64,000 nt of DNA from Escherichia phage 4MG: the sequence record NC_022968.1; one strand, 5' to 3'. Position numbers and translations under genes: made by a program. Under the pieces are notes generated by a model, which worked only from the letters and a program-made list of their open reading frames with translations, ran no database searches and was not told the DNA's origin. The stretch's first letter is position 1. Each line of letters begins with the position of its first letter. Positions 879-60,608 of this stretch are shown in pieces.

Positions 879-1079
879 TTGAGTAAGCCCCTGAAGTTCT
901 ATTACAAGAACTGGCGCGGGGAATACGGTTACCGTACCGTGGTGGACCCGGTGATGTGGTATGGGTCTACAGAGTTTCACAAAAAGCCTCAATGGATGAT
1001 CAAGGCATATGATGTCGAGAAAGATGCCGTGCGAGACTTTGCTGTGAATGATATCGTTGAATTTATCCGAGAGGTGTAA
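879..1079 (+). CDS. hypothetical small protein (start uncertain)
   Basis: Track ORF 747-1079 trimmed to TTG just after the upstream stop; no clear RBS. Confidence 0.3.
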   Translation: MSKPLKFYYKNWRGEYGYRTVVDPVMWYGSTEFHKKPQWMIKAYDVEKDAVRDFAVNDIVEFIREV

Positions 1080-2053
1080 TGCTGAGTGCAGAAGAAATCC
1101 TTGATTTAAAAGCTAAAGGCCTGAGTAACCGTGAAATTGCTCGTCGTTATCTGGGAAAAGAAAGCAAGGAATCCCACATCCGTCTTATTCTTAAGGCGCA
1201 TGAGTATAACAAGGAAGCTGAGAGAGTGATCAGTGATGTTATTGAGCAGCATCCCGGTGCTAAGATCTTCCTCGGTGACGTAGAAGTATCACCAACACTG
1301 GCTTGGGTCTTTAACCGATTCAAGGCGTTTGTAACACCTTCCCACGTAGAGCATGAACCTTACATGTACACATGGGCTGGTAAGTGGTTACATAACCCTG
1401 CGATCATCAGTCGCAAACTTCCTGACTACGAAACGTTCAAAACAGATATCCACGACGACCGTGAACTGGTTGAAGAACTGTGGCATATTTTGGATGAGTG
1501 TGATATCTTCATCGCACACAACGCTCGCTTCGACAAAGGTTGGGCTAACCAGCGTTTCGCGTTCCACGGAATGAAACCGCCATCTCCGTACATCGTGATC
1601 GATACGCTTGCAGAACTCAAGTCAGCATTCTCCTTGCCTTCTAACGCTCTGGAAGCTGCGTGTAATTACTTCCAACTGGACGCTCGTAAGCGCCACCACG
1701 AAGGTATCACGCTGTGGATTCGTTGTTTCCACGGAGAGATTGAAGCATTCGAAGAAATGGAATACTACAACATCGGGGATATCCCGACACTTGAAGGTAT
1801 CTACTTGAAAGTCCGTCCTTTCATGAAGAAACACCCTAACGTGACCCTGTACAATGATGAAGACGAAAACACGGTCCTGCGCTGTGTCCGTTGTAACTCT
1901 GATCAGGTTGTTGAGATGCCGGGTAAGGTCGGTACTACGTACCTGTCTAAGTTCCAGGCATACCGTTGTGAGTGCTGCGGTTCTGTGATGCGTGACCGCC
2001 GTAACATCCGTACTAAGGAAGAAATGGCTAACACGCTTGTGAATATCATTTAA
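1079..2053 (+). CDS. DEDDh-type 3'-5' exonuclease (DnaQ-like)
   Basis: IFLGDVEVS (Exo I DxE) and IAHNARFDKGW (Exo III HxAxFD) motifs; ATG overlaps upstream stop. Confidence 0.55.
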   Translation: MLSAEEILDLKAKGLSNREIARRYLGKESKESHIRLILKAHEYNKEAERVISDVIEQHPGAKIFLGDVEVSPTLAWVFNRFKAFVTPSHVEHEPYMYTWAGKWLHNPAIISRKLPDYETFKTDIHDDRELVEELWHILDECDIFIAHNARFDKGWANQRFAFHGMKPPSPYIVIDTLAELKSAFSLPSNALEAACNYFQLDARKRHHEGITLWIRCFHGEIEAFEEMEYYNIGDIPTLEGIYLKVRPFMKKHPNVTLYNDEDENTVLRCVRCNSDQVVEMPGKVGTTYLSKFQAYRCECCGSVMRDRRNIRTKEEMANTLVNII

Positions 2054-2084
2054 GGGCTTCGGCCCTTTTGCAAAGGAGAGAAGA

Positions 2085-2690
2085 TTGGATATTATTGTTC
2101 TTAACGCCCCGCCACAAAGCGGTAAAGATGAGATCTCTGCGTATCTGTGCAAAGGTAATCCCAACATCAACCACGAAGAGGTAAAGGAACTCCTGTTTGA
2201 GGTTGCTATTCGTTCAGCGGGGATTTCCCGTGAGTTGTGGGATGCAATGTATACTCGTCGGTATAAAGAGATCCCAAGCCCATATCTGATGATTGATGGT
2301 GTGAATGTATCTCCACGTCAGTGGATGATCCATTGCTCTGAGAAGGTTATCAAGCCGTTGTTTGGTAAGTCTGCATTTGGTAAGGCCGCTGTAGAGCACC
2401 TGAAAAAGACCTATGCGAATGATGAAGTCATTGTGTATTCTGATGGTGGTTTCAGGGAAGAAATCAAAGAGTTATCCGATTACGCATATTCAACTGGTGG
2501 TGAATTCTTCCTTGCACGTATCCACCGAAAAGGTTATGATTGGGGTAATGACAGTCGTAACTGGTTGTACCTTGATGGTATCAGAGGCCACGAACGTGAC
2601 TTTGACAACAAAGAGGGCGGCATGATAGACTGTGCTGAAGAGGTTCTCGAATGGGCGAGAACTATTAGCTACGGAGAAGAGAATGCGTAA
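2085..2690 (+). CDS. P-loop deoxynucleoside monophosphate kinase-like
   Basis: Walker A-like LNAPPQSGKD resembling T4 gp1 dNMP kinase (LSGVKRSGKD); RBS AAAGGAGAG upstream. Confidence 0.5.
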   Translation: MDIIVLNAPPQSGKDEISAYLCKGNPNINHEEVKELLFEVAIRSAGISRELWDAMYTRRYKEIPSPYLMIDGVNVSPRQWMIHCSEKVIKPLFGKSAFGKAAVEHLKKTYANDEVIVYSDGGFREEIKELSDYAYSTGGEFFLARIHRKGYDWGNDSRNWLYLDGIRGHERDFDNKEGGMIDCAEEVLEWARTISYGEENA

Positions 2691-3285
2691 ACCGCTAAAT
2701 ATCGGTATTGATGTTGACCTGACTTTTGTCGATTCAGGGTCCCCTTGGATTCTATGGATGGAACAGGTGTATGGTGTGAGTGCTGACTACAAGCTTCCAC
2801 CACCAAACCCACAAGGGAAACTCTACTACAACGTTTCCAAGTATTTTCCACCTGCAAAGGTAAATCAGGTTCCACCATACGAGTTCTGGGAAGACCCATA
2901 CCTCTATGACAAACTGAAGCCTCTGCCTGGTGCAGTTGAAGCAGTAGCGGCTTGGGCCGAAGCTGGACACTTCAACCAGTTTGTGTCTTACTGTAAGAAA
3001 GGCCACTTCTCGTCTAAGGTGCGATTCCTGAAACGTGAAACGGAAGAGTTTTTCAGTATCGAGCCAGGCTCAGGCCACGGGTTCTATGCAACGAAAAACA
3101 AAGCTGGTATCAAACTCGATGTCATCATTGATGACCGCAACGAGTTCCTGAATCAGTTCGGTCCTGAAGTGATCAAGATTAAGTTCAAGACACCTTACGA
3201 TCAGTCCGAAGAACTTCGTGTCTCGATTGACCTTGAGACCGATAACTGGGACGACATCCGGAAGTTTGTTCTGGACATTGCATAA
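2683..3285 (+). CDS. HAD-superfamily phosphatase, probable 5'-(deoxy)nucleotidase
   Basis: N-terminal IGIDVDLTF = HAD motif I DxDxT; start trimmed to ATG with GGAG RBS, overlapping the kinase stop. Confidence 0.5.
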   Translation: MRKPLNIGIDVDLTFVDSGSPWILWMEQVYGVSADYKLPPPNPQGKLYYNVSKYFPPAKVNQVPPYEFWEDPYLYDKLKPLPGAVEAVAAWAEAGHFNQFVSYCKKGHFSSKVRFLKRETEEFFSIEPGSGHGFYATKNKAGIKLDVIIDDRNEFLNQFGPEVIKIKFKTPYDQSEELRVSIDLETDNWDDIRKFVLDIA

Positions 3286-3479
3286 TGAAGAGATGCCCCA
3301 CAGGAGACTTCGTTGTCCACTATGGGGATTGGGTGGAGGTTTTCACCGAGGACGGAACCTTCCTCATATCCTTCAAAGCAACAAGCGACATGTGTCAGGA
3401 CATCCTGACACGTTATCTGGTGTTTAAAGCAGGAATGAACCCTGAGACACCATATCGAATCAAAAGGAGAGGCAAATGA
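3285..3479 (+). CDS. hypothetical protein
   Basis: ORF with TAATG stop/start overlap. Confidence 0.45.
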   Translation: MKRCPTGDFVVHYGDWVEVFTEDGTFLISFKATSDMCQDILTRYLVFKAGMNPETPYRIKRRGK

Positions 3480-3799
3480 CATTAAAACAAGAATCTTTCG
3501 ACATCCTGAAAAATGAATTGCAACGCCGTGTGGATAAGGTTCCACAGGTTATGGGGTTTGATGCCTATGGTATCACCGCCGCAGATATGGGTCTCGATGC
3601 CGATTTCATTAACCGACTGATCACTGAAGCCTACCTTGGTATCTTCACTGCCGAAGAAGCTGAAGAAATGATCGCATTCCAGCAACGCTTTGCTGATCGC
3701 ACCGCGATCCTTGAAAAGGTTGTGGAAGAAGCTGTTGGAAAGGTAATGGAAGCCAACAAAGAAAACATCCTGAAAAAACTGCAAGAAGGGGTTAAGTAA
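3476..3799 (+). CDS. hypothetical protein
   Basis: ORF with ATGA overlap, RBS AAAGGAGAGG. Confidence 0.5.
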   Translation: MTLKQESFDILKNELQRRVDKVPQVMGFDAYGITAADMGLDADFINRLITEAYLGIFTAEEAEEMIAFQQRFADRTAILEKVVEEAVGKVMEANKENILKKLQEGVK

Positions 3800-4764
3800 T
3801 GACAGAAGCTGTAATCGCTCGCGTAGTAGCGGATAGTGTTTCTCCGCAGGGACAACGTATTACAACTTTTGAGCTTGAATACCCGCGTATCATCCACAGT
3901 GAGTTGATGACGCACCGACTATTCAGTCGTAATGCTATGAGTAGCCGTGCAATTCCGATCAAGAAGATGATCGAGCAGGTTCAGCAAAATCCAGCAATGC
4001 CTGTTAAGTTCGGGAAGAACCAGCCCGGTATGCAAGATGCAGGTGACCATAACCAGTTGATCGATGCGGGTTATGAACCCGCAACTTGGTGGGGACTAGC
4101 AGGGCTGAGTGCAGCACGATTTGCTGAGGCATTTGCAGAAGCTGGGTATCATAAGCAGATTGCAAACCGCCTTCTGGAGCCATTCCAGCGTATGAAGACG
4201 GTCCTGACTGCTACCGACTTCGAGAACTTCTGGTGGTTGCGTGTGGATAAGGATGCAGATCCTACCATCTTCGCACTGGCTGAAGCCATGAAGAAGGCCT
4301 TTGATGAGTCCTTACCAGAACTTCTGGAACCGGGACAGTGGCATACGCCGTATGTTGATCACGTCTACGAATACGAAGACATTGACGACAAAGAATGTGT
4401 TGTGTTTGTTGGGTATTGTGTTCTTGACGAGAACGACAAGCCTGTTATGCTTACCGTTGAGGAAGCAAAGGCAATATCTGCCTCGTGTTGTGCTCAGGTC
4501 TCTTACCGTGTCCTGAACAACACAAAAGATAAGGCGCTGGACATTTATGGGAAACTTTTGAGCGGTAATAAGGTTCATGCTTCTCCGTTCGAACACCAGG
4601 CTACGCCACTTGTTCATGCTTCCTGTGATGAACTGGAGAATGGGGCATTCGCTTGGGAAGAGGGCGTTACCCACGTTGACCGGAATGGGATGTTCTGGAG
4701 TGGTAATTTCCGTGGTTGGTCACAACACCGCCAGTTAGTTCCCAACAACGTAGTTTCAGGTTGA
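3799..4764 (+). CDS. putative flavin-dependent thymidylate synthase (ThyX-like)
   Basis: THRLFSRNAMSSR resembles the ThyX RHR-x7-S-x-R signature; sits in nucleotide-metabolism module; 321 aa is long for ThyX. Confidence 0.4.
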   Translation: MTEAVIARVVADSVSPQGQRITTFELEYPRIIHSELMTHRLFSRNAMSSRAIPIKKMIEQVQQNPAMPVKFGKNQPGMQDAGDHNQLIDAGYEPATWWGLAGLSAARFAEAFAEAGYHKQIANRLLEPFQRMKTVLTATDFENFWWLRVDKDADPTIFALAEAMKKAFDESLPELLEPGQWHTPYVDHVYEYEDIDDKECVVFVGYCVLDENDKPVMLTVEEAKAISASCCAQVSYRVLNNTKDKALDIYGKLLSGNKVHASPFEHQATPLVHASCDELENGAFAWEEGVTHVDRNGMFWSGNFRGWSQHRQLVPNNVVSG

Positions 4765-4845
4765 CAAAGGTTCCAGTAATCCGTATCTTGGTTGTATGAA
4801 TTGCGGGGAGAGTTTCTCCCCGATTATAGGCAGAATGGAGAATAC

Positions 4846-5322
4846 ATGAGTAAAACAAAACGCAAACCTACCCAACACATTTCGGTCACTTTGGACTTCC
4901 TGAGAACCGTTCCTGGATTCGATGTGACACAAGAAAGTGGACTCCGCGCTGCCCTTTATGCAGTAGGATTCCAAGTCTCCGACAGTGAGGGTAATCCTAA
5001 GCAAGTAACTATGCTTAACAACAAAAATGTACGATGTGCTAATTTGCCATATTTGTACCGTAAGACCACGATCTTTGTCGGTGACATGCGTCCGGACTAT
5101 CCGTATGCAAAAATTTATAACGGCGTTGACATCCTTGATGTCGGTGTGTATTCAGAGCGCGACATGGAGTTCGTTATCGACTTGCCTTATGACATCCCGG
5201 TAAACGAAAAAGTCAACACCCGTAAGTACACAAAACGCGGTGACCGCCCAGACTCGTTCGATATTACGTTCAATAGTGAAGATGAAGCACGTCTGAGTGA
5301 CGCATTTGGTCTGGGGGACTAA
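4846..5322 (+). CDS. hypothetical protein
   Basis: Track ORF 4792-5322 trimmed to ATG with GGAG RBS; preceded by hairpin CGGGGAGAG-TTT-CTCCCCG. Confidence 0.5.
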   Translation: MSKTKRKPTQHISVTLDFLRTVPGFDVTQESGLRAALYAVGFQVSDSEGNPKQVTMLNNKNVRCANLPYLYRKTTIFVGDMRPDYPYAKIYNGVDILDVGVYSERDMEFVIDLPYDIPVNEKVNTRKYTKRGDRPDSFDITFNSEDEARLSDAFGLGD

Positions 5323-5552
5323 TGAGTAAAGAGAAGACCAAGTGGAAAGACCGTGGCTTTGATGATAAGCATCACTACGCCGGGTGGCTCTACTTCAATG
5401 ATTTGACCGATGACAGTAAGATGTACGATGATGTTTACTATGATCAATATTCTGGTAAAATAATCAATGTCACTGCTCCGTCTGAAGAAACACCTCAAGA
5501 CGAGGAAGTTGACGAAGCCGATAAATATCTTGCTCAATTCGAAGAGAAATAA
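5322..5552 (+). CDS. hypothetical acidic protein
   Basis: ORF; start overlaps upstream stop. Confidence 0.5.
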   Translation: MSKEKTKWKDRGFDDKHHYAGWLYFNDLTDDSKMYDDVYYDQYSGKIINVTAPSEETPQDEEVDEADKYLAQFEEK

Positions 5553-5561
5553 GGAGAAAGT

Positions 5562-7877
5562 TTGATCAATACAGTTGTAAAGAGTGATGGAACAGAAGTT
5601 GTGTTCGAGCCGGAACGTCTTAACAAAGCAGCAATCTTTGGTGATGACGGCAATGGCAACTGGTCACATATCTCAATGGACGCTTACAAGCGTCTGTATG
5701 ACGGTTGCACCACTCGTGAAGTAAACCAGGCATTGATCGACGCTTGTGTAAGTCGTAAAGATGAAGCTCACTCCCGCATGGCTGGACGTGTTCTCATCGG
5801 GCAGATCTACAAAGAGGCGTATGGTGGTTTTACAAAGATCCCTACGCTGTTTAACTTCTACCACTACATGACCAATATCGGCTACTGGGAAGATATGGGT
5901 TATGACTCTTTCGACCTGATTAAGCTGGAAGAAGCTATTGATCACTCGAAAGACCTGAGTTATGGTTATGCGGTTCTGAAACAGTTCCGCGATAAGTACG
6001 GTATCAAGGACAACATCAACGATGTTCTGTTTGAATCTCCGCAGATGATGTTCATGGGTATCGCAATGGCAGTAATGAAACGTATGCCGAAGGAACGCCG
6101 TATCAATGACGTTATCCAACTGTACACGTACCTGTCTGATCTGAAGATCAATGCTCCAACGCCGTACCTGAATGGTCTGCGTACTGGTCGCACTGGCTAT
6201 GCGTCATGTTGCATCATCAAAGCAGACGACACAGCTAAGAGCATCGGTGTTGCTCGTGAAGTTGCGTACACAATGACGGTTGCACAGGCCGGGATTGGGT
6301 ATTACCTGTCCTCCCGTTCAATCGGTGATGGTGTCCGTGGCAATACGATCAAACACATGGGTAAAATCCCATATTACCGTGGGATTGACTCTGGTGTGAA
6401 AGAGAACCGTCAGTCAACTCGTGGTGGCTCTGCAACAGTTTCGTTCTTGGCTATCGACCCACAAGTCGAAGACCTGATGAAGCTGAAGAACCCGCTCACA
6501 GTGACCTCTAAACGCCTGAACACAATGGATTACTCCATCGGTATTAACCAGTCGTTCATGAACCGTGTGGCTAAGAACCTTGACTGGATGCTGGTCTCTT
6601 ACAAGGATGCACCTCAGTTACACGAGGGTATGTTTAAGATGACCATGCAGGAGTTCGATGCGGAAGTTGCTCGTATCGCAGCGGATAAGAAGATCCCTAA
6701 GACTTGGGTTAAAGCCCGTGACTTAGCTCTGGAGATCATCACACAACGAGCAGAAACAGGTCGCCTGTACGTGTACTGGCCTGATGAGATGAACCGACAC
6801 ACGCCGTTCCTGGAGACAATTTACTCCTCTAACCTGTGTCAGGAAATCTGTCTGCCGACCAAGGGCTACAAAGATATGCGTAATATCTTCAACCCTGTTG
6901 CAGACGATGGTGAGGTTGCGCTATGCTTCCTGTCCTCTTTGGTTGCTGGTCGTGTTACTCCTGAAGAGTACGAGGATGTTGCTTACTACACCGTCCTGAT
7001 GATCGATAACGTTATGGATATCATGGAATATCCGTATGAGAACATGAAGCACACAGCCGAATCTCGTCGTTCGATTGGTGTTGGCCTGACTAACCTTGCT
7101 CACTACATCGCGAAACACAAAGTCGCGTATGGTTCTCCGGAAAGCAAGCAGTTGGTTCACGATCTGGCAGAACTGCACAGCTACAGCCTGCACAAGGCAA
7201 GCTTGCGACTGGCGAAAGAGCGTGGTGTGGCACCGTGGATGCATAAGACCAAATACCCTCAGGGTTGGTTGCCTATCGACACCTATAACAAGGCAGTTGA
7301 TAGTGTTGTGAAGAATCCGAGTCTGAAGCAGGACTGGGAAACTCTGCGACAGGAAATCATCAAGAATGGTGGTATTCGTAACAGTGTTCTGGAAGCGTAT
7401 ATGCCGAACGAAAGTTCCTCATTGGCTACCAACACAACCAACGGTCTGTATCCGGTACGTGATCATGTGATCTTCAAGAAATCGCCTCAAGGCTCTGTGC
7501 TGTTTATTGTGCCTGAGTATGAAGAACTGAAGGATTACTACACCTCTGCGTGGGATATCAACACAAACGACCTGATTGACATTTACGCCATCATTCAGAA
7601 GTTCGCAGGCCAGGCAATCAGTGCTGACCTCTACATCGACTACACCCAGTTGAAAGACGGGAAGATTTCGATGAAAGACCAGATTGGTTATCTGATCCGT
7701 GCGACGAAGATGGGGATGAAGACCTGGTACTACCTGAACTCGAAGGTTGGTGCTGGCGACTCCCTCACCGCAGAACTTCAGGCGAAGAAAGAAGCAGAAG
7801 AGGCCACCCGCAAGGATTATCCTCTGATCGCTGACAACTCTGTCGAAGATCCGTACTGTGAAGGTTGTGCATTGTAA
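5562..7877 (+). CDS. nrdA: ribonucleotide reductase class Ia large subunit
   Basis: 771 aa; N-terminal ATP-cone-like segment, SSNLCQEI active-site motif, C-terminal YCEGCAL Cys pair; TTG start after AAGGAG. Confidence 0.9.
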   Translation: MINTVVKSDGTEVVFEPERLNKAAIFGDDGNGNWSHISMDAYKRLYDGCTTREVNQALIDACVSRKDEAHSRMAGRVLIGQIYKEAYGGFTKIPTLFNFYHYMTNIGYWEDMGYDSFDLIKLEEAIDHSKDLSYGYAVLKQFRDKYGIKDNINDVLFESPQMMFMGIAMAVMKRMPKERRINDVIQLYTYLSDLKINAPTPYLNGLRTGRTGYASCCIIKADDTAKSIGVAREVAYTMTVAQAGIGYYLSSRSIGDGVRGNTIKHMGKIPYYRGIDSGVKENRQSTRGGSATVSFLAIDPQVEDLMKLKNPLTVTSKRLNTMDYSIGINQSFMNRVAKNLDWMLVSYKDAPQLHEGMFKMTMQEFDAEVARIAADKKIPKTWVKARDLALEIITQRAETGRLYVYWPDEMNRHTPFLETIYSSNLCQEICLPTKGYKDMRNIFNPVADDGEVALCFLSSLVAGRVTPEEYEDVAYYTVLMIDNVMDIMEYPYENMKHTAESRRSIGVGLTNLAHYIAKHKVAYGSPESKQLVHDLAELHSYSLHKASLRLAKERGVAPWMHKTKYPQGWLPIDTYNKAVDSVVKNPSLKQDWETLRQEIIKNGGIRNSVLEAYMPNESSSLATNTTNGLYPVRDHVIFKKSPQGSVLFIVPEYEELKDYYTSAWDINTNDLIDIYAIIQKFAGQAISADLYIDYTQLKDGKISMKDQIGYLIRATKMGMKTWYYLNSKVGAGDSLTAELQAKKEAEEATRKDYPLIADNSVEDPYCEGCAL

Positions 7878-10875: not shown

Positions 10876-11676
10876 ATGGGAAGAAGCAAAGAGGCTCGTG
10901 CAACAAAACTGAGCGCCCGTCAACAGCAACGTGCTGAACGTCAGGCCGCTAGTCAGGCAAAGCACCACCCGAAATTCGATGAGGAACGAAAAAGCGCACC
11001 ACCGCTAGTTGCTCTGAATGAAAAGCAGCAGGATTACCTTCACAAGTTGCAGACATGCAACATTATCATCGCGAAGGGGATCTTCGGAACAGGTAAAACC
11101 TACCTTGCATCCGCTCATGCTGCCGACTTGCTGCGTAGAAACGAACTCGACAAGATCATTGTCGCTCGTCCATACGTGCAGACGGGTAAAACCTCCGGCT
11201 TCAAACCGGGTACTTCACTGGAAAAGCTGTTCCCTTACGTCCGAAATATGCTGGATACCATCCGTAAGCGTATGGGTGATGGGGCTTACTACAATGCCCT
11301 GAAGGACGGCTTGAATGGGCGTATCGAAGTTCAGGAACTGGAAAGCATCCGTGGTCGTTCATTCGACGAAAAGAGCTTCCTGCTGATCGACGAAGCGCAG
11401 CAGAGCACCCCGGAAGAAATGCTGAGTATCATCACTCGTATTTCTGATAACTGTACGCTCGTAGTCATGGGTGATGCAAGTCAGAAAGATATTCATGGTC
11501 AGTCAGGCCTTGAATGGTTGATCGAGTTCACTCAGCGTCACAATCTTGCAGGCGTGGGATCTGTTTCCTTTGATGACCCGAATGAGGATATCGTTCGTGG
11601 TGGTATGGTTCGCGACATCGCTCTTGGCCTCATGGCTGACCGCGAAGAGAAGCGCTATACCCCGATGGCTTCTTAA
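10876..11676 (+). CDS. phoH: PhoH-like ATPase
   Basis: Walker A GIFGTGKTYLA, Walker B LLIDEAQ, typical PhoH size. Confidence 0.8.
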   Translation: MGRSKEARATKLSARQQQRAERQAASQAKHHPKFDEERKSAPPLVALNEKQQDYLHKLQTCNIIIAKGIFGTGKTYLASAHAADLLRRNELDKIIVARPYVQTGKTSGFKPGTSLEKLFPYVRNMLDTIRKRMGDGAYYNALKDGLNGRIEVQELESIRGRSFDEKSFLLIDEAQQSTPEEMLSIITRISDNCTLVVMGDASQKDIHGQSGLEWLIEFTQRHNLAGVGSVSFDDPNEDIVRGGMVRDIALGLMADREEKRYTPMAS

Positions 11677-12621: not shown

Positions 12622-13104
12622 ATGACAGTTAGTATTCATGGGGTTATCTCCCATCGAAAACTGATGGAGTTGAAGAATTGTGGGGTTGTTTCTCCGGGGC
12701 TGTTTGATGCTGAAGCGGAAAGCCTCTTCAATTTTTATCGTAAGGTTGTGGCTCAGTCTCTGTATGAGATGAACGATGGGTTCTTTACCCGAATGATTTA
12801 TAACACTGCCGCAGCAGAACGCGATGCACGGTGGATGTTCCCGGATCGTCGTGATTTGCTGAATCACCTGATCTACCTGGATGGTAAATCCAAGTATGTG
12901 ACTGTCGAAAAGGAAGAACTTGACAAGTTCACAATGCTGCACACCGCAGCCGTAGCCTCTGAAAGGGCGAGAAAAGTTCTCGTGACATTCAAGTACAGCG
13001 ACCAGGTACTTGTCGATGACGAAACAGGGTATTACATCGACTGGCTGATGAAGAATGCATACATTCTGAAAGGCTATATTGCAAACGCTCGTGAGGAGGA
13101 TTAA
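12622..13104 (+). CDS. hypothetical protein
   Basis: ORF after TAGGAGGAGT. Confidence 0.5.
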   Translation: MTVSIHGVISHRKLMELKNCGVVSPGLFDAEAESLFNFYRKVVAQSLYEMNDGFFTRMIYNTAAAERDARWMFPDRRDLLNHLIYLDGKSKYVTVEKEELDKFTMLHTAAVASERARKVLVTFKYSDQVLVDDETGYYIDWLMKNAYILKGYIANAREED

Positions 13105-13105
13105 T

Positions 13106-14029
13106 ATGGAACAGAACAAGAACTTTTTCGGAATGCCGGGATTCAGTGGCAACGTGTACAGCTACCCTGTCCACTCTCACGATCATGTTATCTACATTGA
13201 TGACCTGTCATGGTTAGAAGATCATCAGGACCGCTTGCAGGTAATTCGCCAGGCATCTCCTGATGATACCATTCGTGTGGTAATTAACAGTCCTGGTGGG
13301 GTTGTTTCTATCGCAATGGCTTATGTAAGTGCTATTCGTGAAAGCCAGGCGTCGATTGTTACCCACGCAGAAGGTAACGTGTGTTCTGCTGGTACTGTTC
13401 TGTGGCTTGCCTGTAAGGATCGCACGGTCTCTCCCCTGACTATGTTCATGTTCCACAACTACCAGGGCGGTACGTATGGTGACGGTGCAAACATGTACAG
13501 CCAGATTGCCTTTGAAAAGCACTACTTTGATCGCCTGATGGATACCTTCTACACCGGGGTTCTGACAGAGACTGAAATTGCTACGATCAAAGGTGGTGGT
13601 CAGGTGTGGATGGATGAAGTTGAGATCCTGAAGCGCACCCCAGCGGTTCTGCTCGATGAACGAAACATTAAGCGTATGCAAGAGGGGCAGCGTCCGATCA
13701 TCTCCGGTGAGAAGCCGAAAGAAAAGACCGTGGTCGAGAATGTTGATCTGAATAACCTCCCTGAAGACGGCGTGCCAGAAAGCATTTTCCTGAGAATTGA
13801 AGTTGAGGGTGAGACCTTTAAGTTCGACGTATCGACTCTCCAGGCAAAAGACTTTGATCCTTTCAACGTTGCTGAACTGCAAACCATCTACTCTCAGATT
13901 GGTGCAATCGCCTCAGGGTCAGAGGAAGCCTTGATTGTGAATACTCGAAACCGTCAGGACCTGATCGATGCGATTCTCGCCGCTTCTGAAGAGATTATGG
14001 CTGATGTGCTGGAGAAAATGGGGAAATAA
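13106..14029 (+). CDS. ClpP-like serine protease
   Basis: VINSPGG and GNVCSAGT motifs resemble the ClpP fold; trimmed to ATG after GTGAGGAGG. Confidence 0.55.
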   Translation: MEQNKNFFGMPGFSGNVYSYPVHSHDHVIYIDDLSWLEDHQDRLQVIRQASPDDTIRVVINSPGGVVSIAMAYVSAIRESQASIVTHAEGNVCSAGTVLWLACKDRTVSPLTMFMFHNYQGGTYGDGANMYSQIAFEKHYFDRLMDTFYTGVLTETEIATIKGGGQVWMDEVEILKRTPAVLLDERNIKRMQEGQRPIISGEKPKEKTVVENVDLNNLPEDGVPESIFLRIEVEGETFKFDVSTLQAKDFDPFNVAELQTIYSQIGAIASGSEEALIVNTRNRQDLIDAILAASEEIMADVLEKMGK

Positions 14030-16747: not shown

Positions 16748-18001
16748 ATGAAAGTATATCTGGTAGGTGGCGCAGTACGTGACGGTTTGCTTGGTCGTGA
16801 AGTTCATGACCGTGACTACGTGGTTGTGGGTGCAACGCACGAAGAAATGATCAATAAAGGTTTCACCCAGGTTGGCGCTGCTTTTCCAGTATACCTGCAT
16901 CCTGAAACCAACGAAGAGTATGCTTTGGCCCGTACCGAGCGCAAGACGGGCAACGGTCATACAGACTTCGAAACATTCTTCAGCCCGGACGTGACTTTGG
17001 TTGAGGATTTGTCTCGTAGAGACCTGACGATCAACGCTATGGCTAAAGATTTGGAAACAGGAGAGATCATCGACCCGTTTGGTGGTCAGTATGATATCGA
17101 AAAGAAAATTCTGCGTCATACAACGCTGGCATTCCTTGACGATCCTCTCCGCATCCTGCGTGTGTACCGATTCAAAGCACAACTGGGCAAAGACTGGGAA
17201 ATCCATGCCGACACTAAAGCTCTGTGCTTTAATAACCGTTATGGGCTGTCCCACATCAGCGGTGAGCGTAAGTGGAAAGAGATGGAGAAAGCCCTTGGTT
17301 CTGACAACTTCCGGGCATATGCTGAAGCAATGGCAGAGCTTGGTGAGTTGCCAGAACTGGATGCCCTGCGTGGAGTAGCACAACCACCAGAACACCACCC
17401 GGAAGGTGATGCTTTCGTTCATACACTGCTGTGTTTGGATGTGGCTGACCTTTACGAGGCTAACCCGTATACCAAATTTGCAGTGCTGTGCCATGACTTC
17501 GGTAAGGCGATCACTTTCCGTAAATACGGCAATCTGATCGGGCATGAAGAGGCAGGTCTGGAACCAGTACGTACATTGTGTGAGCGTATCCGTGTGCCTA
17601 ACGACTTCCGTGATGTTGCACTGTACGTAACAGAGCACCACACCCGTGTTCACTGTATCGCCCCTCGTGGCGGCAATAAGGGTGCAAAGCCACGGTCACT
17701 GATGAAACTGTTTGAGGCAGCAGGTAATGTGGCGAGCGCCAAAACAGCGATGAAGGTTGGTTCTTTGGCAGATGCGTGTTTCTGCGATGCAAAAGGTCGT
17801 GGTCCAACAAAAATTGCAGAGCCGTATCCGCAGGGTTATGTTCTGATGGATGCTTTCCGTTGCATGAAGGCTGTTGACACTAAGGTGATCTCTGCTGAGT
17901 GCCTTGCAAAAGGTAAGAGCGGTATCGAGATTGGTGAAGCTATTCGTGTTGCACGTATTGATGCTATCCGTAGCATCACCCAGCGTGAAATTAAGTGGTA
18001 G
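16748..18001 (+). CDS. cca: CCA-adding tRNA nucleotidyltransferase with HD domain
   Basis: MKVYLVGGAVRDGLLGREVHDRDYVVVG ... RRDLTINAMA ... HD-domain residues; close resemblance to E. coli Cca recalled from memory. Confidence 0.85.
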   Translation: MKVYLVGGAVRDGLLGREVHDRDYVVVGATHEEMINKGFTQVGAAFPVYLHPETNEEYALARTERKTGNGHTDFETFFSPDVTLVEDLSRRDLTINAMAKDLETGEIIDPFGGQYDIEKKILRHTTLAFLDDPLRILRVYRFKAQLGKDWEIHADTKALCFNNRYGLSHISGERKWKEMEKALGSDNFRAYAEAMAELGELPELDALRGVAQPPEHHPEGDAFVHTLLCLDVADLYEANPYTKFAVLCHDFGKAITFRKYGNLIGHEEAGLEPVRTLCERIRVPNDFRDVALYVTEHHTRVHCIAPRGGNKGAKPRSLMKLFEAAGNVASAKTAMKVGSLADACFCDAKGRGPTKIAEPYPQGYVLMDAFRCMKAVDTKVISAECLAKGKSGIEIGEAIRVARIDAIRSITQREIKW

Positions 18002-18009
18002 GAGAGACT

Positions 18010-18471
18010 ATGACCCTATTTGATTTTCCAAAACCGAATGGCAAGACGGTGCAGGAGAAGTACGAATATGCCAAGTTCCTAGTGTTGTGCAAGGAGCCTA
18101 CACTGGAACTTCTGCGATTCCTTGAAAGGGAGAAAGATAATTTTACGTACCGTCATCTTATGGTTGGTGGTTACACGTTTAGCTATGACCTTGTGTGGAG
18201 CAAAGGACTGCTCTTTGATAATCTTTCCCGGCAGGATACTACCTATCCACACTACGGTGTGGGCGGGTATGTAAGCAATGTCACCAGCAGGTACTATGGT
18301 TTTTCGTGGGCGAACCCTTATGAGGCATCTTTGTTGGAAAAGGCTGTTGACAACCTTATATTGTGGTCGGAAGAGCGTACAAGACTGGCAGAGATCCAGA
18401 GGGAAAAGGATATTCAAAATGCTCACCGAACTCGTGTCAAAGAATGGTTGAATACCCATGAAGAAAGCTGA
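18010..18471 (+). CDS. hypothetical protein
   Basis: Trimmed ORF after TAGGAGAG. Confidence 0.5.
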   Translation: MTLFDFPKPNGKTVQEKYEYAKFLVLCKEPTLELLRFLEREKDNFTYRHLMVGGYTFSYDLVWSKGLLFDNLSRQDTTYPHYGVGGYVSNVTSRYYGFSWANPYEASLLEKAVDNLILWSEERTRLAEIQREKDIQNAHRTRVKEWLNTHEES

Positions 18472-18664
18472 CAAGGAAGAGTACACATACGAGAAACACC
18501 ATTTCTACGCAGACAAACATGCAGGGAAGCAGGTCTGCGCCTGGTGCGGCCTTGTAGCCTTGAGAAACAAGGCAAGTGACTGGTGCGTTGACAAGGGGTG
18601 CAACTACAAACTGCACCCGTCTTATCGCAGCGCCATGTACAAATTTACGCAATTCTTCAAATAG
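18458..18664 (+). CDS. Cys-rich small protein
   Basis: CAWCG ... CNYK cysteine pairs. Confidence 0.45.
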   Translation: MKKADKEEYTYEKHHFYADKHAGKQVCAWCGLVALRNKASDWCVDKGCNYKLHPSYRSAMYKFTQFFK

Positions 18665-18672
18665 GAGAGCAT

Positions 18673-18993
18673 ATGTTCTGGTGGATTGATAATGTTGTAG
18701 GGCCATATATGTTCTTCGTGAACGAGTGGTTTGAGTGGCTGACGCTTGGTGTACTGATCGTGTCTTCTGCATTGATAGGTAAATTCTTCCATCCAAGAAG
18801 TTTTGATAGCTGGGAGGACTATTTCTGGCCCGTGTTGTTTATCACGGTGGCGACAGTGCTTATTCCAACTGCATCGGTACTGATAATGTTTATACTTCCG
18901 ATAATCGCCGTTGTCCTCTTGATCGCAGCGGTAGGTGGTGGAATATTCTGGGCTGTGCAGAATAACTTCTGGATAAAAAGGGGAAAACAATGA
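18673..18993 (+). CDS. small membrane protein
   Basis: Hydrophobic segments; RBS AGGAGAG. Confidence 0.5.
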   Translation: MFWWIDNVVGPYMFFVNEWFEWLTLGVLIVSSALIGKFFHPRSFDSWEDYFWPVLFITVATVLIPTASVLIMFILPIIAVVLLIAAVGGGIFWAVQNNFWIKRGKQ

Positions 18994-19208
18994 CTATTGA
19001 ACTTGTAATTTACCTGTGCATCGGTATACTGTGCATGGTCGCTGTAATAGCTGCTGATTGGTTCTTGGCAGATAGATTATCTGGACAAGGAATTGGTATT
19101 GGGCTGCTGGCTGTTGTGTTCTGGCCTTTATTTGGGATTTGCCTTATTGGTGGCCTGATAGCTGCCCTGTTTGAAGAAGATTTTGTAATCGCAAGGAGAA
19201 AGAGATGA
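18990..19208 (+). CDS. small membrane protein
   Basis: Two hydrophobic segments; ATGA overlap. Confidence 0.5.
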   Translation: MTIELVIYLCIGILCMVAVIAADWFLADRLSGQGIGIGLLAVVFWPLFGICLIGGLIAALFEEDFVIARRKR

Positions 19209-19693
19209 AGACACGCATGTACTGCGTAGTAAACCAATATATTGCTGGCATCCATGCCGGGATTCAGTCGGCACACGCGATGTCGGAGATGTTCCTTGAT
19301 TACTCTCAGCGCCGTAACAATGCCGGAAACCTGTTGTGGGACTGGGCTGATCGCGACAAGACCGTAATCGTGCTCAACGGTGGCTACCAGTCTTCATTGC
19401 AGGAACTATGTGAGAAACTGAAGCCTCTGAGCGGCACTTACCCTTGGGCTTCCTTCTGTGAGGAACAGGATGCCCTGAACGGTGCGATGACCGCAGTTGC
19501 TGTTGTGCTGCCTGAGTATATGTACTCACCGCAATACGCAGAAGTTGTTGACTTGGTGAAATTACCAGGTTACAATCCACCACAAGTTGCTAATCAGTAT
19601 CGTGACGAGATGGGAAATACCATCCACAACTATACGCAACCTGAAAAAGACCTGATCACAATGATCAAATCATTCCGACTGAAAGGAGAATAA
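19205..19693 (+). CDS. hypothetical protein
   Basis: ATGA overlap; RBS AGGAGAAAG. Confidence 0.5.
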   Translation: MKTRMYCVVNQYIAGIHAGIQSAHAMSEMFLDYSQRRNNAGNLLWDWADRDKTVIVLNGGYQSSLQELCEKLKPLSGTYPWASFCEEQDALNGAMTAVAVVLPEYMYSPQYAEVVDLVKLPGYNPPQVANQYRDEMGNTIHNYTQPEKDLITMIKSFRLKGE

Positions 19694-19695
19694 AT

Positions 19696-20031
19696 ATGAT
19701 CTACACTATCTTTTTACTCTGGACCCTCTTTGGCCTTGGCATCTGTACATATTCTTGGCTGAAAGGCGAAGATACCGTTGCCGACCCGAAATCGTTTGGT
19801 GTATTCGTTGTTCTGGCAATGGTCGAGGGGCTGATGTTGGTAACAACCCTGATCCCACCAAGCGCGGGTCTGTTTGCAGGGTGCTTGTTTGGTTTCTGGC
19901 TGTTCCGTCACCTGGTGGCAGCAAAAGCAATTCTCACCGGGAAGACCTGCAAAAACAAGAATATGGGTTATGGCATTCTTGTTAACGCCGTGTTCCTTGG
20001 CCTTGTGACCATCTCTTACTTCGGAGGGTAA
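19696..20031 (+). CDS. small membrane protein
   Basis: Hydrophobic segments; RBS AAGGAGAAT. Confidence 0.5.
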   Translation: MIYTIFLLWTLFGLGICTYSWLKGEDTVADPKSFGVFVVLAMVEGLMLVTTLIPPSAGLFAGCLFGFWLFRHLVAAKAILTGKTCKNKNMGYGILVNAVFLGLVTISYFGG

Positions 20032-20032
20032 T

Positions 20033-20209
20033 ATGAAAGTTGAAGAACTGAACCCGGAAATCCTTGTAGCCATGATAAATGCAGCGAGCAACATCGCCGC
20101 TGCTAAAATCAGGACAATTGGTGACGAATTCAACCGTGACCACAACTTTTTTAGCCGGGAATTTGGACGTGTTATCGAAGGCGTAATGAAAGAGGTCAAC
20201 AAAGAATGA
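20033..20209 (+). CDS. hypothetical small protein (58 aa)
   Basis: Below track cutoff; CGGAGGG RBS. Confidence 0.35.
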   Translation: MKVEELNPEILVAMINAASNIAAAKIRTIGDEFNRDHNFFSREFGRVIEGVMKEVNKE

Positions 20210-20547
20210 AAGACGTTCGTGGTGAAACCCTGAATGTTGGTGATGAGGTTTATATCTACTGGGGGTATAACCAATTGCGCCCAGCCGTGGTAAAGCAGAT
20301 CACTAAAAACAAGGCCAAAGTGTTTTGTGACGGGTCACTCTCCAAATGGAAGTCAGGTGAGTGCATGATCAAGGCAGAAGAACCAACAGGCTACTACCCT
20401 GACGAGGTGATCATGCTTCTTGAAGAGATTCGTCGTATTCGGGATGAGGCTCCGATGAATAAAGAGGGTCTTCCAACAAAACAACTGTGCCAGGGGCTTC
20501 TGAATTTTTGGGATATGAAGCGCCCAATGAAACTGGTTACCTCTTAA
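20206..20547 (+). CDS. hypothetical protein
   Basis: ATGA overlap. Confidence 0.45.
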   Translation: MKDVRGETLNVGDEVYIYWGYNQLRPAVVKQITKNKAKVFCDGSLSKWKSGECMIKAEEPTGYYPDEVIMLLEEIRRIRDEAPMNKEGLPTKQLCQGLLNFWDMKRPMKLVTS

Positions 20548-20555
20548 GGAGAGAT

Positions 20556-21629
20556 ATGAAAACTTTTGATATGATGCGATGCTACTCAGGTAGCCTCGCG
20601 TATGGGACTAATCTCCCAACATCGGATGTTGATATCCGTGGTCTGTTCTGTGCGGAACCTAAGTTCATCCGTACTCCATTCTTCAATATCAAAGAGCAGA
20701 CGCTCGCTGATGAAGAGGATGGTAAGATCTACGAACTGACAAACTTCATGAAGTTGTTTGTGGAGATGAACCCCAACATCATCGAACTGATGTTTGTTGA
20801 TGAAAAAGATATCATTTCCAGTTCAGACGCTTACGCATACCTGCGTACAATGGCACCTGAGCTTATGTCAAGTAAGGTTGCATTTAGCTTCTCTGGTTAT
20901 GCTATGGCACAGCTTAAGCGTATCCGTGGTCATGATAAGTGGATCACCAATCCGCAACCGGAGGAAAAGCCAACGCAAAAGGACTTCTTCCGTTTAGTCC
21001 ACAACTACAGTGAGCACCCTTTCCTTGCTGGTGTAATTAAGCACGAACGCTTCATGGAGGCCATGACAAATCTGAACGATATGTGCGTCCTCGTTCCTTA
21101 TGGCAACGACATCTATGGTGTGATGGAGAACTTCAGTAGCTCAGGTATGTTCAACGCAGATGGTTCTATTCGTCATGTTGACTACCAGCAACTGTCTGAT
21201 ACAGACAAGCGCCGGAAACCTGTGTTCATTGTAAAGTATCTGGCAGAAGAGCACAAACAGGCAAAGGAGAAGCACCGTAACTACTGGGCCTGGAAGCAGA
21301 ACCGTAACGAAGTGCGTCATCAGCTTGAAGTGAACTTTGGGTACGACACCAAACACGCCATGCATCTTGTACGTCTGATGCGCATGGCTGAAGAGATCCT
21401 GACTGATGGAAAGGTTCTGGTGAAGCGTCCTGACGCTCAAGAACTCTTAGATATCCGTGGTGGCAAGTGGACTCTTGACGAGCTTCTTAAATGGGCTGAT
21501 GAAAAAGATCATTACATTCGCGAAGTTCTGTACAAAAAGACAGACCTGCCGAAGTACACCGATCTTGAGTTAGCTTCTCGTGTTCTCATGACAGCGCAGG
21601 ATATCTGCTGGGCGAGTATGGATGTTTGA
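20556..21629 (+). CDS. Pol-beta superfamily nucleotidyltransferase (minimal NTase or CD-NTase-like)
   Basis: SGSLAYGTNLPTSDVDIRG = GS-x9-13-DxD nucleotidyltransferase motif; RBS TAAGGAGAG. Confidence 0.55.
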   Translation: MKTFDMMRCYSGSLAYGTNLPTSDVDIRGLFCAEPKFIRTPFFNIKEQTLADEEDGKIYELTNFMKLFVEMNPNIIELMFVDEKDIISSSDAYAYLRTMAPELMSSKVAFSFSGYAMAQLKRIRGHDKWITNPQPEEKPTQKDFFRLVHNYSEHPFLAGVIKHERFMEAMTNLNDMCVLVPYGNDIYGVMENFSSSGMFNADGSIRHVDYQQLSDTDKRRKPVFIVKYLAEEHKQAKEKHRNYWAWKQNRNEVRHQLEVNFGYDTKHAMHLVRLMRMAEEILTDGKVLVKRPDAQELLDIRGGKWTLDELLKWADEKDHYIREVLYKKTDLPKYTDLELASRVLMTAQDICWASMDV

Positions 21630-49529: not shown

Positions 49530-49912
49530 GCTGTCTCCAGATAGTCTTTCAGATATTCGATGACGTAGCTACGTGCATAGTTCTCATCAGCATCGTTATG
49601 CCACATTTTAGTGACAACACCAGTCAATTTGTATAGTGAACGTTCAAAATGGTTCATCCCCGGAAGAATACTCACCATAAAATCCTCTTCCTCACTAATT
49701 TCAAGAGGATTAACAGTGAAGTCTGGTTGAACTAGTGTCTCCCAGGCTCCATTTTTGAACCGTTTTAAGGTCAAGGCACGACGATTTGAAGAGGTAAGAT
49801 ACTCAGAGTAGTCATCCCCCTGGTGAAAACCGATCCTGACCATAGCCCCACTGTACATAAAATCAACATCCACAGTGAGGCGCTCTACCTTCAGCCTATT
49901 TTGCGTGTTCAT
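49526..49912 (-). CDS. hypothetical protein
   Basis: ATGA overlap. Confidence 0.45.
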   Translation of the reverse strand: MNTQNRLKVERLTVDVDFMYSGAMVRIGFHQGDDYSEYLTSSNRRALTLKRFKNGAWETLVQPDFTVNPLEISEEEDFMVSILPGMNHFERSLYKLTGVVTKMWHNDADENYARSYVIEYLKDYLETA

Positions 49913-51332
49913 CTAAGTCAACAGCCCTCCCAAATGGTGGGTCGTACTTGGATTTGTTACGTCCACACAGCACCCACAACGTATCCCACTTCTTACCCCA
50001 GTCTTTTTTGCGTGAGGTAAGGTCTTCAATGTACCCATCAGTGAAGATTATCACATCTTTTGCATCAGGGATATTCTTTTCGATGTATTCAAAGGCAACA
50101 CCAGCGCGTGTACCACCTGTGGAAGTCACATTATAGTCCAGCATCTCCTTGATGTTATCCTGTGTGTACACTTTCACTTCCCCAACCATCGTAGACCAGC
50201 AGAAAAGTGTTACCCGGAAGCACTTATACAGGGTGCACAGGCCAATAATCTCATTGAATATCCTGGTCATGGTCTGTCTGCTGATAGAACCCGACACATC
50301 GAAGCATACAACGATGTCGATTGTCTCAGATTGCTTCCTTCCCGGAAGAATAATGCTCTGTTTGTGGGTGATTGCCCCATAATTACGCAGTACCTGGGTC
50401 ACCGAGCCAGACCTACGAGCGGGTTTACGGTACGAAAGGTGCGACCTCACACGAGAAACCATACGTTGTTTAATGATTTTCATGTAGTCAATGTGTGGTT
50501 TCCGCATTCTTGCAATCAATTCCCGCGCTTCTTTCGGCCCTTCACCCCCGGCAGCACTCATTGCAGCATCAATCAGCCCAGCAGACCACGCAAGATTCTC
50601 ATCTTTGGCGATTGGGCCGAGGCTTGGGTGCGGGTCTACATACCCAAGGATGTCACGCTCAGGGTCATAATCCCCGATATGTGTACCCATAGGGTTGCCA
50701 GTAACCGCTTTCCCATTGTAGATCATCTCGTAAATTTCTTCTGCTGTCTTGTTTTGGAATGCAAAATCACAATAGCAGTAGGCAAGGAATCCAAATTCTT
50801 TGTCTTTATTGAACTTAGTTTGCGCCCCCAGAGGGAAGAACTTCAGGGTTTTATTCCTTGGCCCCAAGTCTCCAGCCACCAAATCTGTGTTGATGTACTG
50901 ATCCGCTGCGATATTGTACATCTTGGAGTTGAAGCTTTTACCACGGGCCATATGGTCGTTGGTGATATGGCGTATTTCATGCATGAGAATAACCACCACT
51001 TCTTTTGGTGTTTTCTTGCGATAGAATACGTCTACATACGTCTTGTAATCATCCTTCTGTTGTTGTGTCATTGTTGGATGATTGTCAATACGATCAAACA
51101 CTTTCTTTTTGCGCTCTGCTGGCATACCCATAATGAACTCAGGGTTGTAATACAGATTACGATGGTCTGTTGCAGCCGTTGGCAACCAACGCCAGTCAGC
51201 GATGATCGGTAAAGAACTCAGCAAAGTTCCGTAAAATGGGCGATGTTGCAGCAATGCAATACGTGCTGACTGAATTAGTTTTAGCGCTTCATCTTGAAGC
51301 TTAGAGATCATCTCAGATTCATCTTTGTACAC
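49896..51332 (-). CDS. metallopeptidase-like / von Willebrand factor A domain protein (DUF2201-like architecture)
   Basis: HEIRH (HExxH) in N-terminal half; DVSGSI (MIDAS DxSxS) in C-terminal half; start set at GTG with GGAG RBS. Confidence 0.55.
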   Translation of the reverse strand: MYKDESEMISKLQDEALKLIQSARIALLQHRPFYGTLLSSLPIIADWRWLPTAATDHRNLYYNPEFIMGMPAERKKKVFDRIDNHPTMTQQQKDDYKTYVDVFYRKKTPKEVVVILMHEIRHITNDHMARGKSFNSKMYNIAADQYINTDLVAGDLGPRNKTLKFFPLGAQTKFNKDKEFGFLAYCYCDFAFQNKTAEEIYEMIYNGKAVTGNPMGTHIGDYDPERDILGYVDPHPSLGPIAKDENLAWSAGLIDAAMSAAGGEGPKEARELIARMRKPHIDYMKIIKQRMVSRVRSHLSYRKPARRSGSVTQVLRNYGAITHKQSIILPGRKQSETIDIVVCFDVSGSISRQTMTRIFNEIIGLCTLYKCFRVTLFCWSTMVGEVKVYTQDNIKEMLDYNVTSTGGTRAGVAFEYIEKNIPDAKDVIIFTDGYIEDLTSRKKDWGKKWDTLWVLCGRNKSKYDPPFGRAVDLDEHAK

Positions 51333-51344
51333 AGTTATCTCCAA

Positions 51345-59219: not shown

Positions 59220-59732
59220 ATGACGATTGAATTAAAACTGGACACAGCGGCAGTAGAAAAGCTTTTCCCAGAGGGGACAGAACTGCGTGTAAACCTACAA
59301 CAATCTGTGGTGAACAATATCGCCAAGCGGATTCTTGATCGCGATATCTCTGTTCGCCTGGAAACCTTGATCCGTACCCATGTGGCGCATGAGTGCGGCA
59401 TGATGGACCTGAATACCCTGGTCAAGAATGCTCTTGATGCACACCTTGAGAAAACTGGCTGGCATGATCACCGTCTTAAGGATAGCACCACCTCACAGAT
59501 CCGTGAATTGGTTAAGAAAAAGGTGCAACAGCTTGCGGATTCAGAAATGCAAAAGATCATTAACGATACCCTTTCTCGTTCTACCAATACGATGAAGGAT
59601 ACCCTTGATCGCCATATCGACAATGCGCTTCAGGATGTGGAAAAACACATCGCTACACGCCTTAACCAGAAATTCGCTGCGGTTGTTGATGCTGCGATTG
59701 CTGCTAAACTCGGTATGGAGGTGAAGAAATGA
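59220..59732 (+). CDS. hypothetical protein
   Basis: RBS GAGGAGTTGTAT. Confidence 0.5.
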   Translation: MTIELKLDTAAVEKLFPEGTELRVNLQQSVVNNIAKRILDRDISVRLETLIRTHVAHECGMMDLNTLVKNALDAHLEKTGWHDHRLKDSTTSQIRELVKKKVQQLADSEMQKIINDTLSRSTNTMKDTLDRHIDNALQDVEKHIATRLNQKFAAVVDAAIAAKLGMEVKK

Positions 59733-60223
59733 GCTTCAAATACAAAGTTGGTGACCTGATCGAAGCGGTCAAGAATGGTGAGGTTAATGTTTTTGCGCAT
59801 GGCTGCAACTGTTTTTGCACAATGGGTAGCGGTATCGCACCACTGATCAAAGAAGCGTTTCCGAAAATGTACGCTGCGGATCTGAAGACCGAGAAGGGTG
59901 ATAAGCATAAGCTTGGAACCTACACAATGGCCTTCCTGAAGGACGGCGAAGCTGCTGGTTTTAATCTGTATTCGCAATATGGCTATAATCGCCGTAAACA
60001 GGGCCTCAGGGACCTCGATTACAATGCCCTGTATGATTCGTTGGATTTGATGAAGAAGGCCTTACAGAGCTTTACAGACGGTTCTGTGGCTGACTACAAA
60101 ATCGGCTTCCCTAAAATCGGTGCTGGTCTTGCAGGCGGCGACTGGAACGTCATCGAAGCGATGATCAAGTCCGTGTTTTGGGATTGCGATGTCACAATCT
60201 ACATCCTTCCGGAGAAAAAGTGA
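59729..60223 (+). CDS. macro domain protein (ADP-ribose binding or hydrolysing)
   Basis: VFAHGCNCFCTMGSGIAPLI and IGFPKIGAGLAGGDW match the two glycine-rich macro-domain motifs; ATGA overlap. Confidence 0.55.
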   Translation: MSFKYKVGDLIEAVKNGEVNVFAHGCNCFCTMGSGIAPLIKEAFPKMYAADLKTEKGDKHKLGTYTMAFLKDGEAAGFNLYSQYGYNRRKQGLRDLDYNALYDSLDLMKKALQSFTDGSVADYKIGFPKIGAGLAGGDWNVIEAMIKSVFWDCDVTIYILPEKK

Positions 60224-60411
60224 TGTTCGTGATAATCTATTTGGCTATGTGGGTTCTGGCAACAACTGTATTCATCAGGCGCTGGCAGCGTCAGTTTGGA
60301 AGGGTTGATGCCTTTATCTTGGTATCGGCTATCTTTGCAGGGTTCTTTTGGTTCGCATACTTCCCGATTTTGGTAATCCTTCGCTTAATAAACGGAGACT
60401 GGAGATCATGA
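60223..60411 (+). CDS. small membrane protein
   Basis: Two hydrophobic segments; overlapping start. Confidence 0.4.
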   Translation: MFVIIYLAMWVLATTVFIRRWQRQFGRVDAFILVSAIFAGFFWFAYFPILVILRLINGDWRS

Positions 60412-60608
60412 TCGAATTAAAAGATGGTATGGTTGCACATACTAAAAAGATCGACCTTCATGTCGGTAATACGGTGTTCACCTATAACGCCCCTCGTGGT
60501 CAGAGCTTTGCTATCCTACTCCTTGGTGCAGAGAAGCCAAGTGGTGACGGCACTGGTATCCAGATCGATGAGTGGCTGAAGAATCGCGGTTGGAAACTGG
60601 AGGACTAA
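60408..60608 (+). CDS. hypothetical protein
   Basis: Trimmed start. Confidence 0.45.
   Translation: MIELKDGMVAHTKKIDLHVGNTVFTYNAPRGQSFAILLLGAEKPSGDGTGIQIDEWLKNRGWKLED

Follow-up and report, generated by a model that had tools for sequence, protein, structure and literature searches.

A P-loop kinase gene lies near the start of a 64,000-nucleotide stretch of Escherichia phage 4MG DNA (NC_022968.1; the window, hereafter). It is followed, in another frame, by the gene for an HAD phosphatase. T4 Pnkp (PseT; PHROG 505) likewise consists of a P-loop kinase and then a DxDxT phosphatase, and the pair shares both superfamilies with it. Does this pair heal RNA ends, as Pnkp does, or does it act on free nucleotides? 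And does it make one protein or two? The answer reached here is that the pair most probably encodes two separate proteins, a T4-gp1-type dNMP kinase and a deoxyribonucleotidase of the NT5C type, within the nucleotide-metabolism operon of an rV5/PVP-SE1-like myophage. The analysis covers gene structure, family and fold assignment, conservation of catalytic motifs, operon context and the absence of fusions; we infer the substrates from family and fold. The features of the locus are:

2074-2078, plus strand: kinase Shine-Dalgarno sequence AGGAG, 6 nt 5' of the TTG (read from the sequence)
2085-2690, plus strand: ORF A, dNMP-kinase-like; TTG start, 201 residues; homologue of rV5 gp099 and PVP-SE1 gp130
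2100-2129, plus strand: Walker A motif (P-loop) LNAPPQSGKD, residues 6-15, with K14 at 2124-2126 and GKD as in T4 gp1
2671-2690, plus strand: coupling junction GGAGAAGAGAATGCGTAA, with Shine-Dalgarno GGAG, the HAD ATG at 2683 and the kinase stop TAA at 2688-2690
2683-3285, plus strand: ORF B, an NT5C-family HAD, 5'(3')-deoxyribonucleotidase-like; 200 residues; homologue of rV5 gp100 and PVP-SE1 gp131
2710-2724, plus strand: HAD motif I, D10-V-D12-L-T14, with the nucleophile Asp and the acid/base Asp
3100-3102 and 3130-3135, plus strand: HAD motif III Lys, K140, and motif IV DD, D150-D151, aligned with TRDK and LLIDDR of human mitochondrial deoxyribonucleotidase (mdN)
3285-3479, 3476-3799 and 3799-4764, plus strand: orf64, orf107 and a ThyX-like gene, the tightly coupled remainder of the operon

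Both ORFs are real genes, since each has dozens of conserved homologues (30-99% identity) and the kinase profile reaches 4,642 representatives at 50% clustering, almost always stand-alone proteins of about 190-200 residues. The kinase begins MDIIVLNAPPQSGKD. An earlier note, made from the sequence alone, had read the P-loop LNAPPQSGKD and the HAD motif IGIDVDLTF at this locus; both are present, the latter at residues 7-15 of the HAD protein (2701-2727). The note had also described a frame-shifted overlap. The two genes do occupy different frames, but the overlap is not a long one. Taken mechanically, ORF B spans 2632-3285 in a frame other than that of ORF A; its true start is almost certainly ATG 2683, which has GGAG upstream and from which the protein opens MRKPLNIGIDVDLTF. 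Because of this start, the overlap that ends with the kinase stop is only 8 nt (ATGCGTAA, 2683-2690).

The junction is identical across six phages save for positions 2681-2682, where GA becomes TG in Ro1; it thus retains a conserved GGAG 8 nt 5' of a conserved HAD ATG. The 8-nt overlap also appears in the annotations of relatives, and five of the ten junctions in the gene cluster overlap, by 1, 4 or 8 nt. The kinase/HAD overlap is ordinary phage gene packing with translational coupling: ribosomes that end the kinase would re-initiate at ATG 2683, aided by the conserved GGAG.

A sigma-70-like site inside the kinase gene (2602-2631) might have served the HAD gene as an internal promoter. It was dismissed because PVP-SE1 does not conserve the -10 element and promoter-like sites barely exceed the shuffled expectation. 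Upstream, between the stop of the exonuclease-subunit gene and the kinase Shine-Dalgarno sequence, lies a GC hairpin, GGGC-TTCG-GCCC, followed by TTTT (2054-2069). The hairpin falls below the length that the terminator scan accepts, and may serve either to terminate transcription weakly or to stabilise the RNA. In PVP-SE1 and Ro1 an additional ORF of 186 nt occupies this position.

The kinase had looked, by its P-loop, more like a dNMP kinase than like T4 Pnkp, whose motif GCPGSGKST the earlier note gave correctly. Profile comparison agrees. The kinase matches PHROG 139, 'dNMP kinase', at E 1.3e-38 (profile positions 83-267), as does T4 gp1, taken from NC_000866, at E 1.8e-65 (positions 83-261), whereas T4 Pnkp matches PHROGs 505, 415 and 2071 and not 139. 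The Walker A motif of ORF A, APPQSGKD, has the conserved Lys followed by Asp (GKD) that is found in gp1-type dNMP kinases, and the family alignment gives the consensus N-[AG]-P-P-x-[SA]-G-K-[DS]. Among 29 homologues N7, P9, G13 and K14 are nearly invariant, and the first P-loop position is A or G. Conservation extends to K34, K61, R78, S85-E86, K90, D120-G-G-F, E126, R148 and D156-S-R158, and the conserved charged residues are as would be expected of an NMP kinase with a lid.

Nonetheless, the kinase differs from T4 gp1 (PDB 1DEK; PF21448), with which it shares PHROG 139 and GKD. The two are 13% identical; the phage 4MG protein has 201 residues and gp1 has 241; and the first glycine of the P-loop is Ala here. 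Pfam DNMK (PF21448), on which gp1 scores 358 bits, does not match the kinase or any of the 29 family members at E <= 0.1, and a search of NCBIfam with the kinase gave no match. These absences count against the assignment. A PDB sequence search with the kinase alone and with its profile found generic P-loop matches only (adenylate kinases, p97), and not 1DEK. Aligning the family profile with single sequences (hhalign) is not discriminating, since T4 gp1 (probability 64%) and T4 Pnkp (73%) both match through the P-loop; the kinase P-loop pairs with GVKRSGKD of gp1, and against Pnkp only the P-loop (23 residues) aligns. A local hmmsearch with the kinase family gave E 2.5e-4 for gp1 versus 0.026 for Pnkp, both weak.

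The AlphaFold2 model of the kinase, built with the 29 homologues as input (pLDDT 91.9), finds the gp1 fold as its best structural match. Among predicted viral structures, most of its neighbours, in phages and giant viruses alike, bear the name dNMP kinase. By both family and fold comparison, the protein is not of the Pnkp/AAA_33 kinase-domain type. Escherichia phage JEP1 encodes a 518-residue protein (BFVD A0A7S6HV70) that matches the kinase at 60% identity across 179 columns and is annotated with a homing endonuclease domain of the DOD type; the JEP1 kinase gene appears, from this arrangement, to carry an intein or homing-endonuclease insertion.

The HAD protein is assigned along similar lines. 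Residues D10, D12, S102, K140, D150 and D151 are invariant in 27 homologues and T14 is nearly so; motif II is probably S102 (2986-2988). Pfam NT5C (PF06941) scores 24.2 bits against a cut-off of 24.8, 0.6 bits short, which also counts against the assignment; the same match is precomputed in 58 of 72 HAD homologues. The family profile finds mdN at E 1.8e-5, and places TKNK and VIIDDR of the HAD protein opposite TRDK and LLIDDR. Identity to the NT5C proteins human cdN and mdN and bacterial 3BWV is 17-19%, and the phage protein differs from them in falling below the Pfam cut-off and in a cap rich in invariant aromatics of its own (W22, W25, Y49, Y54, W69 and Y75).

In the HAD model (pLDDT 95.2) a C1 cap separates motifs I and II: about 65 helical residues intervene before the core is reached from motif I. 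The whole fold matches known deoxyribonucleotidases. A C1 cap over the active site is typical of HADs that act on small substrates. The phage protein bears the signature of such an enzyme, because it is capped and matches nucleotidases through the cap. Pnkp-type phosphatases are absent from the top 60 structural matches of the model, and hhalign gives the T4 Pnkp phosphatase a probability of 0.5%.

The surrounding genes run in the order DNA polymerase exonuclease subunit, kinase, HAD, two small ORFs, ThyX-like, class Ia RNR alpha/beta, thioredoxin and class III RNR. The HAD/orf64, orf64/orf107 and orf107/ThyX-like junctions measure -1, -4 and -1 nt, and relatives keep this gene order. The ThyX-like gene is matched by Pfam Thy1 and PHROG 85. 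Its 321-residue product is very divergent, scoring 33.7 bits on Thy1 over profile positions 52-191 only, and 34.5 bits on TIGR02170 against a cut-off of 87.9; its activity as a true thymidylate synthase is assumed. The genes beside the pair include none seen to be for DNA hypermodification. Other auxiliary genes in the window include those for a PhoH-like ATPase (10876-11676), a ClpP-like protease (13079-14029) and, on the minus strand, a DUF2201 metallopeptidase/VWA protein (49896-51344).

Distant kinase homologues likewise lie among RNR, thioredoxin and ligase genes. Kinase-HAD adjacency, sought in distant lineages as evidence of functional coupling, was absent outside this phage group: the distant kinases adjoin a deoxyribosyltransferase-like or PHROG 335 gene, and one distant HAD gene has no neighbouring kinase. 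In Aeromonas phage LAh_8 (L006:5429-6579) the kinase gene overlaps that of a nucleoside 2-deoxyribosyltransferase-like protein by 1 nt, and in another protein the two are fused (BFVD A0A6J5RPH7). The deoxyribosyltransferase-like protein is a recurring kinase partner, and one that differs from the HAD.

Over positions 1000-6000 of the window, identity to the Seunavirus phages LNA4, EC152 and GAP31 is about 90%, and to PVP-SE1 and its relatives in the Vequintavirinae it is 80-83%. Several recent GenBank records of relatives already name the pair 'deoxynucleoside monophosphate kinase' and '5'(3')-deoxyribonucleotidase'. Elsewhere in GenBank, the kinase homologue of phage EspYZU08 goes under 'methyltransferase' and that of phage SSBI34 under 'ribulose-phosphate 3-epimerase', and the record of Salmonella phage R7, which matches Seunavirus phages, is filed under Demerecviridae; these names and this filing are likely annotation errors. 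A literature search found no experimental work on the rV5 gp099/gp100 homologues and no enzyme assay for either subfamily.

What of RNA repair? The window does hold a set of RNA-end-related genes, in two groups (16748-21629 and 59729-62514), and the RNA ligase and CCA enzyme that the earlier note had placed elsewhere in the window are among them:

16748-18001: CCA-adding enzyme (PolyA_pol head plus HD)
19205-19693: weak PTH2-like ORF
20487-21629: RlaP nucleotidyltransferase (PF10127)
59729-60223: Macro domain protein (PHROG 335, 'phosphatase', in FENT2)
61435-62514: RNA ligase (PF09414)

The ligase, the nearest within the window, is 58 kb from the pair, with no genomic linkage, and ARAGORN found no tRNA genes in the window. 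This set is the second of two. The relatives FENT2, PVP-SE1, GAP31 and rV5 contain a dedicated RNA-repair cassette, separate from the pair and about 9-11 kb upstream of it, a position just beyond this window. Three of these cassettes are located at:

FENT2, L013:33242-36058
PVP-SE1, L015:461-3704
GAP31, L016:3039-6093

The FENT2 cassette encodes a calcineurin-type metallophosphoesterase, a hypothetical protein, Rnl1 (PF09511), the 'cyclic-phosphate processing' protein cREC (PF20274) and a 135-residue AAA_33 kinase. This last protein belongs to PHROG 2071, also matched by the T4 Pnkp kinase domain, and aligns with Pnkp residues 2-149. PVP-SE1 and GAP31 share the FENT2 set, and the PVP-SE1 annotation cites rV5 homologues gene by gene; Sir2 and/or DNA ligase, and MazG, follow the cassette in relatives. 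The cassette matches a neighbourhood of phage V5 that Iyer et al. described as an RNA-repair system centred on a sirtuin; its members are a T4-like tRNA ligase, cREC, a nucleotide kinase, MazG and, in some cases, a calcineurin-like phosphoesterase (PMC9503650). In LNA4, the closest relative (an UNVERIFIED GenBank record; L014:3433-4314), the C-terminal half of Rnl1 and cREC are missing and the AAA_33 kinase lacks its first 12 residues, which hold the P-loop; the LNA4 cassette looks decayed or partly deleted.

Could the pair nevertheless be a split Pnkp? The kinase would then act on RNA ends that carry a 5'-OH and the HAD would strip 3'-phosphates, supplying the phage RNA ligase(s) and CCA enzyme so that tRNAs cut by host anticodon nucleases are mended. 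The kinase-then-HAD order of T4 Pnkp invites this idea, as do the CCA-adding enzyme, RlaP, Macro domain protein and PF09414 ligase of the window and the PHROG 335 'phosphatase' gene beside one distant kinase homologue. Yet family and fold identify a gp1-type kinase and a capped NT5C protein, with the C1 cap and the top 60 structural matches both speaking against a Pnkp-type phosphatase, and the pair sits in an operon for dNTP synthesis, far from the in-window ligase. In relatives, Rnl1 is linked to another kinase and phosphoesterase, not to the pair; the lineage has a Pnkp-like AAA_33 kinase of its own elsewhere. The cassette already supplies end-healing in related phages, and gp099 and gp100 fall outside that system. 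A split Pnkp is further disfavoured because distant kinases adjoin or are fused with deoxyribosyltransferase-like proteins, pointing to mononucleotide chemistry. We judge it very improbable, and the tRNA-repair role that the earlier note had kept in view falls with it. Nor is the pair one polypeptide, as T4 Pnkp is: here there are two genes in different frames, the second with its own Shine-Dalgarno sequence and ATG. A programmed +1 (or -2) ribosomal frameshift in the overlap might still yield a single kinase-HAD fusion protein, as the note had wondered. The HAD frame opens at 2632, with stops closing it 17 codons 5' of the ATG, and there is a 59-nt stretch in which a frameshift would produce the fusion; one database HAD homologue (P0054, 217 residues) is called from the upstream GTG. 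However, positions 2600-2695 contain no slippery heptamer, homopolymer run or known +1 motif; 5' of the ATG, the kinase-frame peptide is conserved between phages and the HAD-frame peptide is not; the GGAG and ATG of the HAD gene are conserved; and short overlaps (1, 4 or 8 nt) are usual among the genes of this operon. No fusion occurs among about 270 homologues inspected, including 53 kinase and 72 HAD homologues and the best 150 of the 4,642 kinase-family representatives, and an HAD-family HMM found no match in 199 kinase-family proteins. (The C-terminal extensions of the longest kinase homologues, P0157, P0259 and P0144, were examined as possible HAD domains, and none was found.) Frameshifting is thus extremely improbable; together with the Pnkp-like reading, it claims a very small share of the probability. 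The kinase and HAD are two separate genes, with no sign of a split or frameshift-fused enzyme.

A closer competitor accepts two small-molecule enzymes and changes their substrates to modified or non-canonical nucleotides, ribonucleotides, NAD-pathway intermediates or sugar phosphates. Some weight, if not much, is left to it because Pfam DNMK does not take in the kinase subfamily and identity to gp1 is only 13%. Moreover, HADs with deoxyribonucleotidase-like folds in phage RB69 have been assigned other substrates (PMC13326640), the phage lineage carries extensive NAD salvage genes, and the adjacent ThyX-like protein is very divergent. Against this stand membership of PHROG 139 at E 1e-38, common to T4 gp1; the sequence-level NT5C matches of most HAD homologues; an operon of thymidylate synthase and RNRs; and the lack of DNA hypermodification genes seen beside the pair. 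Such substrates are unlikely. A dNMP kinase plus 5'-nucleotidase, which the earlier note had offered as the simplest reading, is supported by family, fold and context.

With canonical substrates, the kinase would phosphorylate dNMPs at the expense of ATP, giving dNDPs for phage DNA synthesis; the dNMPs would come from degraded host DNA and from ThyX. The HAD would split some of the (deoxy)nucleoside monophosphates into nucleoside and phosphate, via an Asp10 phospho-enzyme intermediate. Making a dNMP kinase and a dNMP phosphatase together looks futile if the two do not differ in specificity. Presumably, the opposing activities would form a substrate cycle or a specificity filter that shapes the dNTP pool; such complementary specificities would be the natural answer to why the two are co-translated. 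In the more specific form of a filter, the kinase would commit wanted dNMPs to DNA synthesis and the NT5C-like enzyme would destroy one that is unwanted or non-canonical (for example dUMP, or a nucleotide that is modified or specific to the host). That form is unlikely.

Animal cells run substrate cycles between deoxynucleoside kinases and 5'-nucleotidases. The likeness is that a kinase and an NT5C-type phosphatase would work against each other on one deoxynucleotide pool. However, the animal-cell kinase acts on nucleosides, whereas the phage kinase would act on monophosphates, and the phage genes, unlike those of animal cells, are co-translated from one operon.

Together, these results settle the names of two genes that are 'hypothetical' or misnamed in many related phage records, and remove a tempting but wrong link between the pair and tRNA repair. 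Beyond annotation, their significance is small. If the filter reading were true, the Pfam-invisible kinase subfamily, with its 4,642 representatives, would have a substrate range distinct from that of T4 gp1. An explanation for the co-translation of a dNMP kinase and a dNMP phosphatase could show how this phage group edits its precursor pool.
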